A stretch of DNA of 64,000 bases from Acidobacteriota bacterium (GTDB lineage: Bacteria > Acidobacteriota > UBA6911 > RPQK01 > JAJDTT01), in assembly GCA_965209055.1 (NCBI GenBank), contig OZ242374.1, positions 1,664,001 through 1,728,000 on the forward strand. The letters run 5' to 3'. The notes under the pieces were generated by a model. It was given only the letters and a program-made list of their open reading frames with translations, was not told the DNA's origin and did not search any database. Positions 51,969 to 59,562 of this stretch are shown piece after piece. Position numbers and translations under genes: made by a program. Numbering within the stretch: position 1 is the stretch's first letter; each line of letters begins with the position of its first letter.

Positions 51969-52559
51969 TCATCGGAGAACTGGAACCACGGGCAAGGTCG
52001 TGAAGATACGGTTGTCGGCGTCCATCTCCAGGGCCAACCCCGTGAACCTCCCGATGTCTGGCACGGTGCAGCGCACGGACCCCTCGAAGTCCGAAGTGAT
52101 GGTCTTGGCGAACAGCTCGTGGATGAACTGCGCCGTCTGTCCGTTGCCGGCTATTGAAATTTCCTGCTCTTCCAATGCCCTGCCGGCGCGCATCAGTTGG
52201 CATGTGACCTTGATCGCATTCTTCGTCAGGTTGCGGATGGCCATCCCTGTGCGAATTCCTCTGATTTGGTGTCGAGCCGGGAAGATTGCATCCTGGACGG
52301 CCTCACTGGCGCCGACTCCTGCGACGCCAATCTCTGGGTGGTCGAACCGCAGGAACCCACCGATTGGACCGTCTGCGACAACCTTCACCGAGCCAGTTGT
52401 CAGATCCCCCCGGCCGTGGGTGGAGATCGTGAGTTCCCCTAGTGGGACCAATGGCGTCTCCACGGTCAAGGCTCCATCGCTCTGGATCTTAAGGCCGATT
52501 ACCAGGTCCAACATCGCCTCAGGAGGAATGAGGGCTCCTTCACCGTCGTAGAATTGAAT
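51969..52559 (-). pseudogene. 3' part of LRR surface-protein gene split by the transposon
   Basis: homologous to the first repeat domain of the 57359-59562 product (TISTHGRGDL, GVAGVG, RIFTTLPVVPV); joins in frame. Confidence 0.92.
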
Positions 52560-52598
52560 GGGGATTATACAGTTGACTAGGCACTCCTGCATTCCTGG

Positions 52599-52898
52599 TC
52601 ACTTGGGGTGAGCAATCTCGAAGCTCACGATCAAAGAAGCCTCGTGACTTTCCCCATCGCCCATCCTTTTGGCTTCTCGCAAAGCTCGGAACGCTCTTTC
52701 CATAACCGTGAGGTCCGCCCTCTCAAGTCTACGATTGTTGCAGATAGGACAACAATCGATGCTTTTTGCTCTGAAGGAAGGGCCAGGCCCTTTCAGTGAG
52801 AAGACCGTTTCGCCCTTACACTTTTCATCAGGGCAGATGACCCGCATCTTAAGAATGTCTTGAGCTCCGAAAACAATCCTTTTTTCCTTCACTATCAT
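52599..52898 (-). CDS. small Cys-rich (Zn-ribbon-like) passenger protein
   Basis: CPDEKC...CPIC; TATAAT-GGAGG directly upstream of ATG. Confidence 0.7.
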   Translation of the reverse strand: MIVKEKRIVFGAQDILKMRVICPDEKCKGETVFSLKGPGPSFRAKSIDCCPICNNRRLERADLTVMERAFRALREAKRMGDGESHEASLIVSFEIAHPK

Positions 52899-52926
52899 AC
52901 CTCCATTATACTAGTATTTTATACAG

Positions 52927-54543
52927 TTATTCGGAAGAATCAGGACACCCTTGTGGAGGATCAGATGCTGAAACGTTTACTGGATCAGTGTCTTTCCAAT
53001 ACGTCACCTTTGCTTCATAGAACTCAGAATAGTTCGGATGTTCAGGCAATTGGAGTTTGTAACCTCTAGGGTGTTTCCAAATGTCATCAGATGGCACCCG
53101 AATAGACTTCTTGTACCAAATAGGTGATCCAGCCCAAGGTCGTTGATAAGTCACTTCCACTGGATCTGCTTCTTCCATTCGTCGGTGATATGCACTGAGA
53201 TTTGGGTTGTCACTACTTGTTGAGCCGGAGAAGGAGCCCGAACCTCCTATCCTTTCGTGCAGGTGTAATTTGGCAGCGGCAAGGCATTGGCTTTCACCGT
53301 ATTCGGTAATCCAAAATATCTGAGCACCGGTTACATAATCGATTATTGGAGCATACCGAGAATTTTGGTGCGCTCGTCTTTTTCCCTCGTACGGAGGGGT
53401 AGGATAAATCTCAATCCTCTGCACGGCGGGTAGTTCTCCTGTTCTGTCTCTTCTAAAAGCTCCGACGTGGAGGGCTTCATCCCCGGAGACGTTATCAGGA
53501 GCATGAGTAGGGCCTACTCCACCATTTTGAGACAGGACATCCCACCAACCGCCTGGAGAACAATCATCTGGAGAAACGGGAGACGGCCCATCCCAAAAAC
53601 GACGCCAACGCAAAGCGTGCCAATCAGCGTTTCCTTGTTCTCGAGGAAACAACTCCAAAACCATTAAGGTTCGAGGCAGGTAGTCTAAATCGTTGTCTAC
53701 TTCAAGCAGATAGTTGGTGAACCTACCAACCACACGACGATTGACTCGATAGAATTCGGAACCCACATTGATCCCAAACTCATAGACTGGTATTACGATT
53801 TCATCAGTCAGGGTACGGACACACTCATGGGTCTCCAAAACTTTGGGATTTAGATGGTCGTATTCTTTAACGGGAGCCAAAGATGCTTCTACACGACTGC
53901 CACGACTGCATTGAGTCTCATCTAGGATAAAACGGTGTATGGAAGATGCTCCTGGACTCAATCCATAATCTCGTATTGGAAGGACGGTTTTGTCTCCGAC
54001 AGGAATGAAAGGCGTCGCAAAGTAACTGCCTGGGTTCTCAATTGGATCGTACTCGGTGATCCTCCATTGTTGGACGCCTTGACAGTCGTTTCCTTTGGTA
54101 TTCGCTTGGAGGTAAGAAAGATGGATAATCTGGCCGTCATGATGATCTTGGTCAAGATCAACACTTAAGTTACATTGCTCATGTATCATATGAGGGATGT
54201 CTCCGTAAGGAGTTGAGAAGACCCCTCCCTTCGCCCCTGTAAGAAACGCAAACGCAATCAAGACCCTCACAACCTTTTTCGATGTGGAGTTCTTTGATTC
54301 GTTCCGGTCCTTAATCCACAAGATAATAGCAATGAGCAAGGCAAAGGGCAGAGCAGTAAATACGAGTGTTGCTAAGATTGCAGCAATACCTAATCCGCTC
54401 AGTGTCAACCCGAGCAGGATAGATCCTAACGATCCGCTGGCGGCAAGTATGACACCACCTGCGATTATAAGAACTGCAACTAACCCGTGTATACCTTCCT
54501 TATTGTTGAGTATCCCTTCGCACATCTCCCGGAAATCTCGCAT
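52927..54543 (-). CDS. 538-aa membrane-anchored hypothetical passenger protein
   Basis: long ORF in low-GC DNA, GAGGAGG RBS, N-terminal TM helices. Confidence 0.75.
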   Translation of the reverse strand: MRDFREMCEGILNNKEGIHGLVAVLIIAGGVILAASGSLGSILLGLTLSGLGIAAILATLVFTALPFALLIAIILWIKDRNESKNSTSKKVVRVLIAFAFLTGAKGGVFSTPYGDIPHMIHEQCNLSVDLDQDHHDGQIIHLSYLQANTKGNDCQGVQQWRITEYDPIENPGSYFATPFIPVGDKTVLPIRDYGLSPGASSIHRFILDETQCSRGSRVEASLAPVKEYDHLNPKVLETHECVRTLTDEIVIPVYEFGINVGSEFYRVNRRVVGRFTNYLLEVDNDLDYLPRTLMVLELFPREQGNADWHALRWRRFWDGPSPVSPDDCSPGGWWDVLSQNGGVGPTHAPDNVSGDEALHVGAFRRDRTGELPAVQRIEIYPTPPYEGKRRAHQNSRYAPIIDYVTGAQIFWITEYGESQCLAAAKLHLHERIGGSGSFSGSTSSDNPNLSAYHRRMEEADPVEVTYQRPWAGSPIWYKKSIRVPSDDIWKHPRGYKLQLPEHPNYSEFYEAKVTYWKDTDPVNVSASDPPQGCPDSSE

Positions 54544-54581
54544 GACCCCTCCTCTCGACTTGGGTAGAATGGTGGGATGGA

Positions 54582-54674
54582 GGCAGGGTGGACGAAGATT
54601 GGATTAAGTCGCCCGACTGAAAATCGGGTAGGGTTGAAAGGCCCTCGCGGGTTCAACACCCGTCCCTGCCACCA
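54582..54674 (+). tRNA. atypical class II tRNA, anticodon GAA (Phe), Ser-type long variable arm
   Basis: GGCAGGG/CCCTGCC-A-CCA; CCCGA-CTGAAAA-TCGGG; V-arm AGGGTT-GAAA-GGCCCT; GCGGG-TTCAACA-CCCGT; TAGAAT at 54565. Confidence 0.85.
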
Positions 54675-54704
54675 TCAAGCATCAATATATGATACTTCCC
54701 ATAT

Positions 54705-54968
54705 TCACAGGGGCCAGGTTGGGAACGGTGGAGGAGTCAGCCAGACACACTCATCATTGAAGATTCTCAATGTCCAGCCGTTTTCCTTCTCGCGGAACTT
54801 GGCATGAGCTCTCAACGCTCCTCGGTTGAGGGATTTCACTTTCCATAGCACCGCAGTCTCTTTCGAGAGTCTGGCCAGGTCGGCCCAGGTGATTGGGCCG
54901 TGGACTGACATGAGGTGATCGAGGAATCGAACGTGGTGTTTGAATTCGTGGGGTGCTTTGTGGGACAT
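54705..54968 (-). CDS. 87-aa hypothetical protein downstream of RNA switch copy 1
   Basis: GTAGGAG SD upstream of ATG (MSHKAPH...). Confidence 0.55.
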   Translation of the reverse strand: MSHKAPHEFKHHVRFLDHLMSVHGPITWADLARLSKETAVLWKVKSLNRGALRAHAKFREKENGWTLRIFNDECVWLTPPPFPTWPL

Positions 54969-54976
54969 CGACGGGT

Positions 54977-55209
54977 CTCCTACGCTGTCCAGGTGGAATC
55001 CACCGTGGACTGTTGTCTGCAATCAGCACCCCAGTGCAGATAGGGAGCCGGGTCATCGCAGACAACGCATAGGAAGTCGGAAGTGCTCTTCCAGTCCCTG
55101 CCTATTCGCCCCGTCCGATTCATGACGTCGCACGGTTTATAATGCCTTTTGTATTTGGCAGGTGACCCGGCACAGGATGCGCCACGGGAAACCTACGGCT
55201 GTCTGCAAT
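54977..55209 (-). ncRNA. unrecognised structured RNA motif, copy 1
   Basis: GCCGGGUCA/UGACCCGGC pseudoknot helix, terminal GCAGACA(G/A)C repeats, GUCAUGA loop, anti-SD. Confidence 0.7.
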
Positions 55210-55313
55210 GCCGATCATAACAGACAGGACTGGAACGCTCAACTGCCGCTACTCTCGGGAACGGCTCCTCCCTACGCGGGGCAGAGCCCGCCATGATCGT
55301 GAGTCCAACAACC

Positions 55314-55553
55314 ACCTCCTACGTTGCCCGAAAAATTAGCAATCAAAACCAAAATGGCGATGCCTCCGAGCGGGTTGTCTACGCCGACGATCCCACGTCT
55401 GCACATTGTGGGAGCCGGGTCATTGCAGACAACACGTAGGAAGTGAAGTTGCTACTTATTTACTCAGCAAGGTCATGACTCCTTGCGATTACGAGCTATT
55501 GCATTCAGTAGCTGACCCGGCACACTTGCGGGAGAACCCTTAGCGTTGTCTAC
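55314..55553 (-). ncRNA. unrecognised structured RNA motif, copy 2
   Basis: same architecture as copy 1 with sequence-divergent but still paired stems. Confidence 0.7.
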
Positions 55554-55666
55554 GGGTGGATCTTACTGGAAGGAGGGCTGGATTGCAAACCCGCCCCACC
55601 CACAAAATTTTTCGAGCACTCGAAATACTTCTGAGGTTTGCAGTACAATACAGGTTACAACGAAGA

Positions 55667-55753
55667 TGGCAGGCGCCCCAGGCAGGATTCGAACCTGCAA
55701 CCTTCGGCTGCGATACCGTTGCTCATCCATCTGAGCTTCTGGGGCGCTTCGCC
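55667..55753 (-). ncRNA. tRNA-Arg-like RNA with degenerate anticodon arm and extended acceptor
   Basis: GCGCCCCAG/CTGGGGCGC, GCTC-AGATGGAT-GAGC, GCAGG-TTCGAAT-CCTGC, loop ATCGCA; TATAAT at 55754-55759. Confidence 0.75.
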
Positions 55754-55864
55754 ATTATAACCTACTCGGAGGGCAGAAAATGCGTCGTGGGAAGAACCGC
55801 AAGCCAGTTGACATTTTAGCCTTGGCAATGCAGAAAGCGCATCAGCAGGTCAGAGACGGGGACC

Positions 55865-56836
55865 TCAATTCTGAGACTCGTCCGACTCATCATCAGCAGT
55901 CAGATCAAGATACATCAGACGACGGCCGACCAGTCCCGCCACGATGTGCTTCATCTGATCAATAGTATCCAGCTCTCGGATATTGTGACGCTTGGCGAAC
56001 TCACTGACGTATCGGTGTAGGTGCTTTTCACTCATCTTGTGGAAAGTGCCCGTGTAGCCGCGTTTTAACATCGACCAAAAGGACTCCATGCCATTCGTGT
56101 GTGCCATGCCTCTGACATACTCGCCTACTGTGTGCTTGACAGATTCCCGTCTATGGCCCATCCAATCGTAGGCTGGATTCTCGTCTGTGTATGATCTCAC
56201 CCACAAGACAGAGTTTTCCAGGATGAACGTGGAAAGTGTTGCCTTGGTTGTATCGGGAACAACCCTAGCCCTGATCTGATTGGTCGGACGATCTTTCATT
56301 CCCACAACTGCGACTTTGCCAACAGACCCTCGACCAGAGAATTGAGCCCGGCGCTTGGCACTCATATTCCGCCTCTTGCCTCCAATGTAAGTCTCGTCAA
56401 TCTCCACCGGCCCGGACAGAGTCTCTGAGTCGTCCTCGGTCCAGGATTGCCGAAGTCGATGAAGCATGAACCACGCTGTGGCTTGTGTCACATCGATGTC
56501 TCGGTGGAGTTTCATTGAGGAGACTCCCTTGAGGTTCGTAATGTAGATGAAGATCGCCAAGGCCCATTTCTGTAACGGGACGTGGGATCTGGCCAAGGTC
56601 GTGCCAGTGCGGACTGAAAAGTAGCGCCGACAGTCAGAACACCAGTAAGGTTGAGGCCGTCGTTTCGGAGTCTCGTTCGTCTTGACGCTGCCGCAATGCC
56701 CACAGCATCGCTCATCGGGCCAGAGTACGGACTCGAACCATTTTTCCGCGGATTCCTCATCCGGGAACATCTTGAAAAGTTGGATCAGTGAGATTCCTTG
56801 TCGGTAAAACTTGCCTGGAGCTTTTGCTTTCTTCAT
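55865..56836 (-). CDS. IS1595 family DDE transposase
   Basis: Zn ribbon CGHC..CSDC, GVSSMKLHRD, VEIDETYIGG, YTDE, HTNGMESFWSMLKRG. Confidence 0.96.
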   Translation of the reverse strand: MKKAKAPGKFYRQGISLIQLFKMFPDEESAEKWFESVLWPDERCCGHCGSVKTNETPKRRPQPYWCSDCRRYFSVRTGTTLARSHVPLQKWALAIFIYITNLKGVSSMKLHRDIDVTQATAWFMLHRLRQSWTEDDSETLSGPVEIDETYIGGKRRNMSAKRRAQFSGRGSVGKVAVVGMKDRPTNQIRARVVPDTTKATLSTFILENSVLWVRSYTDENPAYDWMGHRRESVKHTVGEYVRGMAHTNGMESFWSMLKRGYTGTFHKMSEKHLHRYVSEFAKRHNIRELDTIDQMKHIVAGLVGRRLMYLDLTADDESDESQN

Positions 56837-56950
56837 TGTCTCCCTCTCAATTTCCTGAACATTTTATCACAGGACCCTGACATTTTTCTGTAGTAAGTCC
56901 TTTGTTATGTTTAGTTTACACAGATTGTCGTGAGGGCAGTACAATAAAAC

Positions 56951-57092
56951 ATGATGGCGGAGGGATGGACACAGCGGGGTACGATCCCGCGACCTCCCAG
57001 TTCTAAGTGCCCGTGGTAGGAAAAATTTTGGGCACCAGAGCCGGGTGTTCTGCCAGCATAAAGAACTATGCGGCCTTCGTCTCCGCCATCAT
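56951..57092 (-). ncRNA. tRNA-like RNA with hairpin inserted in anticodon loop and extended acceptor helix
   Basis: GGCCGCA/TGTGTCC, GTTC..GAAC, CCCGG/CTGGG, AGGTC, GCGGG-ATCGTAC-CCCGC; flanking ATGATGGCGGAG/CTCCGCCATCAT; TAGAAT at 57091-57096. Confidence 0.65.
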
Positions 57093-57127
57093 TCTACCAG
57101 ATTTCCAAGGGGAAGGGAAGATGGTGA

Positions 57128-57292
57128 GGCGCAAAGATTCCTGGCTTTCGGCTCTCCCAAGTGGCTTTCTTGTGGCAAGGGCCTGGGCTGGGGTTACATG
57201 CCCTGGAAGATCGCATCAAACTGGGCGCAAAGATTCCTGGCCCGGGCCTGGGGGAACCTGAAGCTGGGCCTAGGCTGGGGTTACGCGCCCTG
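57128..57292 (+). repeat. two tandem copies of a hairpin motif
   Basis: GGCGCAAAGATTCCTGGC...GGGCCT(G/A)GGCTGGGGTTAC..GCCCTG at 57128-57205 and 57223-57292. Confidence 0.7.
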
Positions 57293-57358
57293 TTGACCAT
57301 CGTAGCGGGTTCGATGTCTTTGGTCAATCAGGGGTACCTAGTCAACTGTATAATCCCC

Positions 57359-59562
57359 AATTGAATGACTGGGTGAATCGGGCCCGATGCTACATTCACG
57401 AGCACCAAGTCGGAAGTGATGGAGGAACCGTTGGCGAAATGGGGGAAATGCAAATGCATGTTGTCCTGCGTGCGCATCGGTGGAACCGGAACCACGGGCA
57501 AGGTCGTGAAGATCCGGTTCTGGAAATCCATCTCCAAAGCCACACCGGTGAACAGAGAATCCTCGGGAGCCATGCACCGAACCGATCCCACGAAGTTCCC
57601 CGTATAGGTCTCGGGGAATAATTCATCAATGAACTGGGCCGTCTGGCCGTGTCCAGCCAGCGGGATATCCACGTCGCCACGCAAGTTGTTCCTTTGCGTC
57701 AGTTGGCAACTCACGGTGATCGGATCCTCTCCCCGGTTACGAATCGCCACTCCAGTATTGATTCCTGATTCTTGGCGCCGCACAGGGAAAATCGCGTCCT
57801 GTACGGCTATTCCCGTACCCACCCCGGCGACTCCCATGTCCGAGCTGTCAAAGCGCAGAACTCCCCCGATGGGACCGTCCGCCACAGCCCTTGCCGATCC
57901 CGTGACCAAATCCCCTCGGCCATGGGTCGAGATCGTGAGTTGTCCCAGGGGTTCTATTTCCTTCCGTACGGTCAGGGACCCGTCGGCCCGGATCAAACGA
58001 TCCTCTCCGACATCCACTATGGATGCCGGGTCTATGAGGTTTCCCTCGGCGTCGAAAAAGTAGAGGGCCGGCTGGATGGGAGTGGCTCCAACATTCACGA
58101 ACACCAACTCGGAGCGAATGGACGCCCCGTTGGCAAATTGGGAGAATTCCAAGGAAAGTCCTGCCAGTACAGTCAGCGGCTCGGCAGATCTGATAAACGT
58201 GTAACCAAGACTGCCCCCAAGCTGGAGCGGGAGCTGTGCGATCTCGACGGTGACCGGAGAAGTCGTTCCAGACTGTCGAGCCACCGAATAAACGTCGCTT
58301 GTCTCTCGCCCTGCGGGAATCGTGACGTGGGATGAATCCCCGCGAAGCATGCCGTTGGTTACAATGATCCGCAGACGGATCTCAAAGGGTGCGCCAGTAG
58401 GCACTCTAAGCTGGAATCGGCCTGGAGCCACCCATTCCATAAAAACGTTGATGAGTAGACGATGCGCCGGATTGTTTCTCATCGTGAAAATTTGCATGGA
58501 AGAGAGACCGAAGAAGATGCCATCTGGCAGGCTGGTCAGCCTATTGTTGTCCAGATAGAGAGTTCGTAGTGAGGAAAGACCGGAGAACGCTCCCGCCGGC
58601 AAACTAACCAGTTTATTCCCACTCAGTACAAGCAGTTGCAGTGTAGAAAGTTCAGCGAAGGCTCCTACCGGAAGGGTAGTCAGCGCACTGTCATTCAGGA
58701 GGAGAGTTCGTATTGAGGTGAGGCCGGAGAACGCTCCCGCCGGCAAGCTGGTCAATTCATTCCCGCCCAGATGGAGATGTATCAGCGAGGAGAGGCCGGT
58801 GAAGGCCCCCACCGGCAGGGTGGTCAGCGCATTGTGAGACAGGCGGAGAAGCTTTAGCGAGGAGAGGCCGGTGAAGGCCCCAGCTGACAGGTTCATCAGC
58901 CCGGTCAGCGGCGTGTTGGGAAAGGATGAGTTGGAAGCACTAGCCAGGTTGAGTTCTTGCAGTGAGGAGAGGCCGGTGAAGGTCCCCGCCATCAGCCCGG
59001 TTAGCTTAGTAAATGACAGGTTGAGTTCTTGCAACGAGGGGAGGCCGGTGAAGGCCCCAGCCGGCAGACTGGTCAACTTTGTACTAGACAGATCGAGAGT
59101 TTCCAGTGAGGAGAGCCCGGTGAACACTCCCGCCGGTAGAGTGGTAAGGGGAGTCAGGTTCAAATAGAGCGTTGTCACCGAAGAAAGTCCCGAGAAATCG
59201 CCGACTCTCAACGCTGTCACTGGTGGCGGCGGCCGTCGTTCGCGGCTGGGGTTGTTCCAATCGGGCGAAGAGTAATACCCGCCGTGAAAAAACTCGCCCT
59301 CAATCGCAGCCAGATGAACCTCGGTCACGTCGGTGCAATCATCTATCCCCGACACCAGACTCACGATCTCGTCGCGCACCTCCGGGGTCCTGTCGCAGAC
59401 GGGGACGATCTGAGCTACGACTGGCTCTGACGCGGCCAGCAGGCCCAAGCTCAAGGTGACGGTTAACAGCGAGCTTCTGGATCGCTGCCGGCAACGATGC
59501 AGAATCTTCGAAAAGTGGACTGACATCTGAATGGCTCCTCCAGGTAGACGGTAGCGGCTCAT
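57359..59562 (-). pseudogene. leucine-rich-repeat secreted protein, 5' part (interrupted by the transposon)
   Basis: signal peptide, VCDRTP.VRD.I cap, LTSLPAGAF.GLSSL..L.L..N 24-aa repeats. Confidence 0.92.

Follow-up and report, generated by a model that had tools for sequence, protein, structure and literature searches.

We found that positions 52560 to 57358 of a 64,000-nt stretch of DNA from an Acidobacteriota genome (hereafter, the window) are an intact transporter insertion sequence (IS) of the IS1595 family, 4.8 kb (4799 bases) in length, whose cargo is unusually rich in structured RNA, as a first-pass annotation of the sequence had proposed. A transporter IS consists of a transposase and passenger DNA between a single pair of inverted ends, and here a DDE transposase, inverted ends, and an 8-bp duplication define a single mobile unit. 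Besides the transposase gene and three further open reading frames (ORFs), the element holds three tRNA-like genes (A1, A2, and A3), which match the tRNA family of Rfam, and two copies of a covarying, pseudoknotted RNA, R1 (Table 1). Coding DNA accounts for 3153 bases, and the remaining 1646 bases (34%) are non-coding, in line with the ~1.5 kb of apparently intergenic DNA reported before. With a confidence that falls somewhat short of even, we favor a composite explanation in which a recent IS1595 transporter would carry a selected RNA cassette, its non-standard tRNAs altering decoding and its leader RNA gating a small cargo gene.

The boundaries of the element proved as exact as had been claimed. 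Specifically, a repeat search recovered inverted arms of 31 nt that are 94% complementary, and alignment of the two 30-bp ends (the left one beginning GGGGATTATACAG) showed that the first 23 nt are identical and that 28 of 30 positions match, with the 8-bp target-site duplication AATTGAAT on either side. The element interrupts a gene for a leucine-rich-repeat protein; when the element and one copy of the duplication are removed in silico, a single host ORF of 928 amino acids (aa) results, and the reconstructed joint recreates a motif present earlier in the same protein. Both halves of the interrupted gene are still open, and the insertion is therefore recent. Contigs of sequencing runs X1 and X2 span both element junctions, and no empty-site joint was seen among the contigs of four sequencing runs. 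Short contigs from two runs of another study (X5 and X6) cover parts of ORF99, ORF538, and the A2 region with 0 to 3 differing letters; in these runs, contigs that match ORF99 at 98–99% diverge left of position 52601, which places the ORF99–ORF538 module there in another left context. The element is single-copy in the 6.08-Mb genome, and its GC content is 50.9%, compared with 62.8% for the genome.

Comparative analysis indicates that R1 is a real, covarying family of structured RNA with a conserved pseudoknot helix. The two window copies and the stretch upstream of the ORF87 homologue in a related element of a same-genus genome (the G005 element, described below) align with conserved blocks and share a multi-helix fold; in this three-sequence alignment, 94.6% of the cells are paired, and both sides have changed in 14 of the pairs, compared with 0 to 2 in slid controls. 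A covariance model built from these three sequences located 16 copies of R1 in the bacterial family, spread over 7 of 15 genomes, and 10 of the 16 lie within 5 kb of an IS1595 transposase place. The same model matched in 5 of 151 genomes of a phylum sample and in 16 of 80 related-transposase loci (see the survey below), in all cases 0.1 to 3.8 kb beyond the transposase, and two of the loci (L146 and L149) hold copies of one 3.1-kb element with R1 and different duplications. R1 itself is a frequent cargo of this IS1595 subgroup. When 16 sequences were aligned by fitting to the model, a procedure that favors covariation, 92.8% of the cells were paired and 21 of 32 pairs were compensatory, compared with 0 to 7 in slid controls. 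G·U pairs occupy 50 of 430 cells, and the RNA strand is therefore the modeled one (minus in the window).

The pseudoknot helix forms between the 16 nt just 5′ of the 3′ strand of the outer helix and a stretch upstream of the 5′ strand of that helix. It averages 9.8 bp when each sequence is paired with its own flank, compared with 6.7 bp (standard deviation [SD], 1.4) in the flanks of the other sequences, and it reaches at least 7 bp in 15 of the 16 sequences, even though the helix sequences are quite different between copies. Since this helix crosses the outer helix, it supports the two pseudoknotted RNA copies of the first-pass annotation. The accompanying label of a switch RNA holds insofar as R1 is structured and pseudoknotted, but the RNA is not wholly without precedent, given its resemblance to the mobile-element RNA sRNA-Xcc1 (see below). 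A downstream alternative partner for the pseudoknot strand, which would make a switch, can be drawn by eye in the window element and the G005 element; it was rejected because it is not general (6.94 versus 6.69 bp). Known riboswitch, T-box, and ribozyme classes gave no Rfam match over the twin RNA, where the only row was a chance-level snoRNA (E = 1.9). Most R1 copies are followed by a same-strand ORF, with a mechanical start no more than 60 nt from the RNA end in nine cases, which fits a cis-acting leader. The proteins encoded behind R1 differ and include the ORF87 family, zinc-ribbon membrane proteins, secreted proteins, and others. A semi-conserved ACUUCAC/CUUCC, which includes the Phe codon UUC, is found where R1 is single-stranded, after the GGCAGG strand (alignment A4; ~55445–55455 and 55085–55100, minus strand); three cargo tRNAs carry the anticodon GAA, and the UUC in R1 may be a coincidence among related copies.

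All three tRNA-like genes reach the gathering score of Rfam family RF00005 (29 bits), with 44 bits for A1, 48 bits for A2, and 29.3 bits for A3. The three tRNA-shaped RNAs described before thus belong to the tRNA family by score, but only A1, the single gene called by ARAGORN at its default settings, is a regular cloverleaf. ARAGORN reports A1 as an 88-nt tRNA-Phe(GAA); the gene has a class II body with a long variable arm, and it alone among the three has a canonical 7-nt anticodon loop with U33 and a purine at position 37. A2 shares 79% identity with the host tRNA-Arg(CCG) (G000:C1:4472765-4472829), has A at position 8, and is missing one base in the anticodon arm, the loop of which can be drawn with 6 nt (AUCGCA) or, above a 3-bp stem, with 8 nt (UAUCGCAG). 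Only at a lowered threshold does ARAGORN recover A2, and it then calls a 2-nt "anticodon." A3 sits inside an outer helix (AUGGCGGAG/CUCCGCCAU) and has, in place of the 7-nt anticodon loop, a 40-nt stretch that folds into a rod; aligned with its relatives G5h and G0x, it contains a 33-nt insert that both lack, and it has one acceptor mismatch. We rejected the rod as an archaeal-type bulge-helix-bulge intron, which is defined by two 3-nt bulges on either side of a 4-bp helix in the anticodon arm, since the fold shows a 1×1 internal loop and a 1-nt bulge. The interpretation of A3 and R1 as Y-RNA-like, tmRNA-like, or T-box RNAs was dropped for want of Rfam support.

Several features are shared by the three genes. 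As stated in the first-pass annotation, each is preceded by a TAGAAT or TATAAT box, which lies 8 to 17 nt upstream, and all fold better with their flanks than shuffled sequences do (z scores of −4.14, −3.70, and −3.89 for A1, A2, and A3, respectively). The acceptor, D, and T arms of A2 and A3 are perfect or near-perfect while the anticodon arm is altered, and the T-loops of the group formed by A3, G5h, and G0x are non-canonical. A helix joins the 5′ leader of each gene to its 3′ trailer and often covers the CCA, as in A1, where the leader pairs with the CCA trailer. Such pairing averages 4.4 of 7 positions in the cargo tRNAs (n = 20, some of them duplicates and hence not an independent sample) compared with 2.83 of 7 in the host tRNAs (n = 53). 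A CCA is encoded in A1 and in four related genes (G5a, G5b, G5c, and G5g). A1 is 79% identical to its homologue in the G005 element; between the two, we counted by eye six compensatory pair changes, one change from G·U to G–C, and no disrupted pair, and their anticodon loop, CUGAAAA, is identical. The D-stem likewise covaries among A3, G5h, and G0x. Taken from these alignments, the RNA genes appear to be maintained by compensatory change across elements whose transposases are 58–79% identical.

The genome contains eight further IS1595-type transposase matches, one of which belongs to a related element with tRNA cargo. This element (element B; G000:C1:2732331-2739795) is flanked by the 8-bp duplication AATCGGAA, its transposase is 58% identical to that in the window, and it encodes a 434-aa homologue of ORF538 (24% identity; E = 8e-26). 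Three Rfam tRNAs adjoin its transposase gene, two of which have Leu-like class II bodies (GCCCGAG..., A73) with the anticodon AGA, while the third carries GCC and a bulged stem. The G005 element is 8.6 kb long, has the duplication TATCCATT and a transposase that is 79% identical, and holds homologues of both ORF538 (35%) and ORF87 (32%) together with nine Rfam tRNA matches. Among these are an A3 homologue without the insert, with the loop CUGAAAA and a 9-bp outer helix, and three tandem units of 100 nt that each have a TATAAT of their own and in which a single loop position varies (GGC, CGC, and AGC) on U73 bodies without G3:U70. All three elements with the ORF538 family carry irregular tRNAs, and Rfam gave no tRNA match in the other IS1595 copies of the genome (elements C, D/E, and a 1.37-kb pair). 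Flags for an internal TGA in multi-copy transposases were set aside because they mark natural stop codons near the C-terminus and not recoding.

We also surveyed related transposons across phyla, taking one genome per species, which yielded 80 loci (1.126 Mb in all) with transposases that are 53–62% identical. By record titles, these loci come from metagenome-assembled genomes of Bryobacterales, Alphaproteobacteria, Pseudomonadales, Binatia, Chloroflexota, and others. An IS1595-type pair of terminal inverted repeats (TIRs) was present in 44 of the 80 loci, with element sizes of 1.1 to 6.1 kb, and identical 8-bp duplications flank 27 of these 44, as they do the window element, element B, and the G005 element. 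Default ARAGORN found 16 tRNAs in the 1.126 Mb, five of them inside the 123 kb of bounded elements, so that 5 of the 44 TIR-bounded relatives hold a tRNA; a sixth (L129) lies inside an end pair that the end-pair filter missed. The five tRNAs are all irregular, in that body class and anticodon disagree or the loop has 8 nt: L108 has a class II body with GAU and G73, L124 and L127 have class I bodies with GAG and GCU, and the U73 bodies of L075 and L081 are like those of the G005 tandem set, with UGC in the one and AGCA within an 8-nt loop in the other. At the Rfam gathering score, tRNAs occur inside 3 of 20 duplication-verified elements, and four more lie in the flanks of these elements. Relaxed ARAGORN (-ps90) was discarded as a detector of irregular tRNAs, since it gave 8 calls in the 123 kb inside and 39 in the 503 kb outside and false positives dominate. 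Whether related elements carry such RNAs had been proposed as a check, and they do: with element B, the G005 element, the 5 of 44 relatives, and R1 in 16 of 80 loci, the cargo recurs. Capture of a single phage tRNA cluster, which had been named among the outcomes that would count against the proposal, was dropped as an origin because phage records show no similarity to the element; plasmid records gave one 127-bp match to the transposase.

Certain irregular tRNAs share further features. By eye, the motif NGCA recurs in the anticodon loops, as GGCA, CGCA, and AGCA in the G005 tandem set (L024:11480-11752), as CGCA in A2 (window 55700-55715), as UGCA in L075:8845-8917, and as AGCA in the 8-nt loop of L081:8202-8276. 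By eye, too, the D arm of the U73 bodies resembles that of the host tRNA-Cys, and these may belong to tRNAs of the Cys type whose anticodon is shifted or spans four bases (UGCN codons). Elsewhere in the genome, an irregular class I tRNA with the anticodon GCU, a relative of A3 that scores 65.5 bits with Rfam (L056:4273-4345; G000:C1:1817273-1817345, minus strand), lies 250 nt from an R1 copy (63.6 bits) and beside a 270-aa ORF that by eye resembles a transposase of another family (see also L068:1501-1677).

In the composite explanation, one transposase and one pair of ends move the whole cassette, within which the tRNA-like genes would be transcribed separately from their own −10 boxes. A1 would enter the tRNA pathway as a non-standard decoder, with its body, which is not of Phe-tRNA architecture, setting the amino-acid identity, and would thus act as a missense-type or otherwise aberrant adaptor. 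We know of no bacterial identity set that a class II body with GAA would match. A1 may carry Leu, Ser, Tyr, or Phe, because the Ser and Leu synthetases ignore the anticodon while the phenylalanyl-tRNA synthetase (PheRS) reads GAA and A73, which are its determinants in E. coli. A2 and A3, seemingly unable to present a normal anticodon, may be non-decoding tRNA mimics or early pseudogenes on the way to loss. R1 would be a cis-acting 5′ leader, the pseudoknot of which gates the gene behind it, here probably ORF87. The element, in turn, could gain through altered host decoding or through an addiction-like effect of toxic tRNAs.

Several observations weigh against this explanation. First, given GAA and A73, A1 could simply carry Phe, with no misreading at all. 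Second, default ARAGORN misses A2 and A3, the score of A3 is barely at the Rfam threshold, and A2, with its missing base and A8, has the appearance of a host-type tRNA-Arg that has been damaged. Third, leader–trailer helices that bury the CCA could hinder maturation, and promoter-like sites are not in excess over shuffled sequences (7 versus 4.2; SD, 2.0); a terminator scan, too, shows no excess (5 versus 4.7; SD, 2.7). Fourth, the covariation counts come from few, related sequences, several having been made by eye from alignments, and the larger R1 alignment carries the bias toward covariation mentioned above. Finally, tRNA cargo is a recurrent but minority trait (3 of 20 elements by Rfam, 5 of 44 by ARAGORN), and within ~1.5 kb on each side of the other IS1595 transposases in the bacterial family, ARAGORN finds a tRNA at 2 of 27 loci, one of which is the G005 element.

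An alternative, which we consider unlikely, is that the tRNA-like genes are non-decoding mimics that serve as a decoy or sponge for proteins that bind tRNA, whether anticodon nucleases, toxins directed at tRNA, or enzymes of modification or processing. This would protect the element or the host, or titrate a factor, and odd anticodon arms and a buried CCA would reflect design, not damage. This would suit A2 (6/8-nt loop) and A3 (rod), which keep their acceptor, D, and T arms, as well as the leader–trailer helices over the CCA and the non-canonical T-loops of the A3 group; moreover, an escape of phage tRNAs from nucleases through changes in the anticodon loop has been described as an idea (PMC10264068). 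However, Pfam and PADLOC searches recognized no nuclease, toxin, or defense gene in the three elements. In addition, the anticodons GGC, CGC, and AGC in the G005 element, together with UGC and AGCA in other phyla, vary at exactly one loop position, and two body types have the conserved loop CUGAAAA. The one-position series and the shared loop suggest that codon reading is under selection, which favors a decoding role (missense or frameshift-type suppression) over pure decoys.

The tRNA-like genes might instead be captured tRNAs in decay, without function, in which case only the transposase, the proteins, and perhaps R1 would matter. We regard this as fairly improbable. Signs of erosion do exist, namely the resemblance of A2 to a host tRNA-Arg, the base lost from the A2 anticodon arm, the insertion and acceptor mismatch of A3, and the poorly paired anticodon stem of G5b, and most related IS1595 elements are without a tRNA. 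Against decay stand the intact stems outside the anticodon arm, the compensatory changes between homologues in different elements, the −10 box kept at its distance in each gene, the CCA encoded in five genes, and the presence of tRNA cargo in 3 of 3 elements with the ORF538 family. Last, the tRNAs could be ordinary phage-like helpers that are charged according to their anticodons and provide decoding capacity to a low-GC element in a high-GC host, as its GC content, the A34 anticodons of the sister elements (AGA and AGC, which would read U-ending codons rare in the host), and the GAA plus A73 of A1 might suggest, but this is very doubtful in view of body classes that run against bacterial identity rules (class II with GAA, AGA, and GAU; class I with GCU and GAG), the lack of G3:U70 in the NGC series, an already complete host tRNA set, and the inability of A2 and A3 to decode normally.

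The composite explanation can also be stretched into a more speculative form, which we hold to be unlikely. Here, the IS1595 subgroup would move identity-swapped or shifted-anticodon tRNAs between distant phyla along with a pseudoknotted control RNA, and such elements would be mobile modifiers of code reading, acting as addiction or adaptation modules. The tRNAs would be charged according to their bodies and would read Phe, Ser, Ile, Leu, and Ala codons or, via the NGCA loops, four-base UGCN codons.

Table 1. Features of the IS1595 transporter and its insertion site (positions in the window)
Feature	Position	Strand	Evidence or remark
Interrupted leucine-rich-repeat protein gene, 3′ part	51969..52559	−	
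8-bp target-site duplication, left copy	52552..52559	.	Identical to right copy
Left terminal inverted repeat	52560..52589	+	Matches right end at 28/30 positions
ORF99, small protein with CxxC...CxxC	52599..52898	−	No Pfam or PADLOC match
ORF538, membrane-anchored or exported cysteine-rich protein, very small family	52927..54543	−	Homologues at 24–35% identity
−10-like box of A1, TAGAAT	54565..54570	+	Promoter-like site ATGACC-17-TAGAAT in promoter scan
tRNA-like gene A1, class II, anticodon loop CUGAAAA (GAA), A73, encoded CCA	54582..54674 (Rfam 54582-54671)	+	ARAGORN, Rfam
ORF87, small protein downstream of R1	54705..54968	−	32% identity to G005 ORF78
R1 copy 1 (sRNA-Xcc1-like, pseudoknotted RNA), directly upstream of ORF87	55021..55215	−	154 bits with model R1 (built from it); fold z −3.15
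R1 copy 2	55385..55570	−	178 bits with model R1 (self-match); fold z −2.08
Hairpin TTTCGAG-CA-CTCGAAA followed by short U run, between A2 and R1 copy 2	55610..55625	−	Read in sequence; not called by terminator scan
tRNA-like gene A2, Arg-tRNA-like body	55674..55745	−	Rfam 48 bits; TATAAT at 55754-55759
IS1595-family DDE transposase, 323 aa, intact	55865..56836	−	PF12762 (DDE_Tnp_IS1595), E 2e-35, profile 1-153 of 153
tRNA-like gene A3	56951..57089 (Rfam core 56966-57075)	−	29.3 bits, at threshold; TAGAAT at 57091-57096
Two-copy direct repeat, ~90 nt each	57128..57292	.	Repeat families D3, D4, D7
Right terminal inverted repeat	57329..57358	−	Inverted-repeat search and end comparison
8-bp target-site duplication, right copy	57359..57366	.	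Read in sequence
Interrupted leucine-rich-repeat protein gene, 5′ part	57367..59562	−	LRR_8, E 2.5e-56

Turning to the protein genes, the transposase, a DDE enzyme of the IS1595/ISXO2 type, was rightly described as intact, with a profile match over its full length, and it is 79% identical to the G005 copy; its zinc ribbon (PF12760) scores 23.4 bits, under the curated 25.4, and CxxC...CxxC is visible in the translation. The two or three unknown proteins reported earlier correspond to three ORFs of 99, 538, and 87 aa, none of which matched a Pfam or PADLOC family (for ORF538, PADLOC gave only a chance-level row, E = 0.0087). ORF99 has no homologue in element B or the G005 element. The ORF538 family is represented by 9 clusters in a set of 1.84 billion representatives, and only 2 genomes in a phylum sample of 401 have it; a pattern scan of the genome-contig and metagenome-contig collections found no relatives. 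The AlphaFold model of ORF538 has a mean pLDDT of 63.9; Foldseek found no match to it in the PDB at E ≤0.001, a wide VIA-align search reached at best a Z of 5.7, covering the N-terminal helices only, and the protein atlas gave no usable match. ORF87, which has two database homologues (97% and 74%), had been listed with 105 aa from an upstream TTG, and we chose the ATG start by alignment with the G005 homologue. The tandem hairpin of the first-pass annotation did not hold up: the region contains only a direct repeat, and positions 57096-57328 fold no better than shuffled sequences on either strand (z = 0.08 on the minus strand and −1.05 on the plus strand).

A number of other mobile or repeated loci were noted in passing. 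Two further IS1595 transporters (L017, G000:C1:6041919-6045037; L018, G000:C1:4013206-4015655, with a copy at 4403283-4405736) carry, by eye, methyltransferase/restriction-like ORFs and no tRNA match. The 1.37-kb end pair (L019, G000:C1:6066994-6068365) and a solo end at 337750 differ from the element ends by 3 to 4 mismatches in 22 nt, and the end pair may represent a non-autonomous derivative. RNA domains of group II introns (RF02001, 85.5 bits; RF01998, 43.6 bits) lie 4 kb from the G005 element (L024:610-1158), and an Acido-Lenti-1 RNA (RF01687; 43 bits, cut-off 37) lies in the flank of a related element (L081:13473-13520). The genome has six tRNA-Leu(UAA) genes, three of which are in a 4.2-kb repeat with 89–92% identity (G000:C1:477237, 1991443, and 2524782; L055); this repeat adjoins an ORF that by eye is tyrosine-recombinase-like and is probably an integrative element that duplicates its tRNA target. 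Identical tRNA-Met genes (G000:C1:17363-17437 and 630951-631025) are in a repeat of at least 6.4 kb with 99.4% identity.

The usual picture of an insertion sequence is that of a transposase accompanied by no more than a few protein genes. The element described here is a simple, exactly bounded cut-and-paste element that bears tRNA-like genes and structured RNA, and such cargo is found again in its sister elements and across other phyla. Should the tRNAs be charged and used, non-standard decoders would spread horizontally, and natural mistranslation or frameshift suppression would become a transferable trait. The element would also offer a well-defined unit of ~5 kb that can be cloned to test what the "irregular tRNAs" known from metagenomes do. 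R1, for its part, would extend the poorly understood sRNA-Xcc1 class by a covarying pseudoknot, a consistent position before genes for small membrane, zinc-ribbon, or secreted proteins, and a link to one transposon family, which jointly make its function directly testable.

In the ISfinder classification, IS1595 elements of the ISNwi1 type are transporter ISs with passenger genes. The window element is like them in its DDE_Tnp_IS1595 transposase, its GGGGATTAT-type inverted ends, its 8-bp duplication, and its passenger DNA, but unlike them in that the passengers include tRNA-like genes and a structured RNA. Within the titles and abstracts searched, a scope that lies outside ISfinder and subscription papers, we found no description of tRNA cargo in an IS. 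The earlier claim that such a cargo is not known from any described IS is therefore borne out to that extent, but irregular tRNAs near transposon-related or toxin-antitoxin genes had already been described, according to the accessible text of Mukai et al. 2017 (PMC5389517).

That study, as far as its accessible portions and those of a review (PMC7609411) go, reports allo-tRNAs and "polycistrons of irregular tRNAs" on Acidobacteria-like metagenome contigs and proposes the irregular tRNAs as missense suppressors and/or regulatory RNAs. The element tRNAs resemble these irregular tRNAs in their anticodon–body mismatch, their clustering, some odd loops or extra helices, and the company of transposon-related or toxin-antitoxin genes. 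They differ from allo-tRNAs, the 12-bp acceptor branch of which is 8/4 or 9/3 in the same source, in having a 7-bp acceptor and a 5-bp T stem (7/5); A2 can add two outer pairs, which gives 9/5 and not 9/3. Judging from those portions of the paper, which lack the sequences of its irregular 7/5 tRNAs, the element tRNAs match the looser class of irregular tRNAs, their closest precedent, and not allo-tRNAs, and what sets them apart is that they lie inside transposons with exact ends and duplications, so that mobility is demonstrated rather than suspected. A further comparison is tRNAProX of Streptomyces, a set of mistranslating tRNAs that are toxic or beneficial depending on the condition (Schuntermann et al. 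2023, PMC10404621, accessible text). Both are bacterial, genome-encoded tRNAs whose anticodon and identity disagree; unlike tRNAProX, which has the dedicated synthetase ProRSx, the elements described here contain no synthetase gene, and the words "mobile" and "transpos" do not occur in the accessible text of that paper.

For R1, the nearest known RNA is sRNA-Xcc1 (RF02221), which the accessible parts of the respective sources describe as an 88-nt RNA of Xanthomonas (PMC2996969) that is found in integron cassettes upstream of symE (bioRxiv 10.1101/2025.06.18.660453) and in five tandem copies ~381 nt apart in a Xylella island (PMC12189769). Going by these descriptions, R1 is similarly borne by a mobile element, lies upstream of a small gene, and can be tandem. 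The most compact R1 copy, in genome G010, aligns end to end with RF02221 at 37 bits (the other members were compared by eye) and shares with it the outer helix GCCGGG.../...CCCGGC, the inner helix, the AAUACAA and GAAUA loops, and the CCC tail. This 37-bit score is the best of any R1 copy against a gathering score of 53 bits, which none passes (0 of 15 genomes over the cut-off), and the window copies give no match at E-values up to 10. R1 has approximately double the length of sRNA-Xcc1, contains an inserted hairpin, and includes an upstream strand of the covarying pseudoknot that is absent from the Rfam model, and from these alignments it is best called an enlarged, pseudoknotted relative of the sRNA-Xcc1 class. 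What is new compared with all of these systems is the presence of irregular tRNAs inside exact-ended transposons, where they recur with one rare protein family and alongside an sRNA-Xcc1-like RNA.

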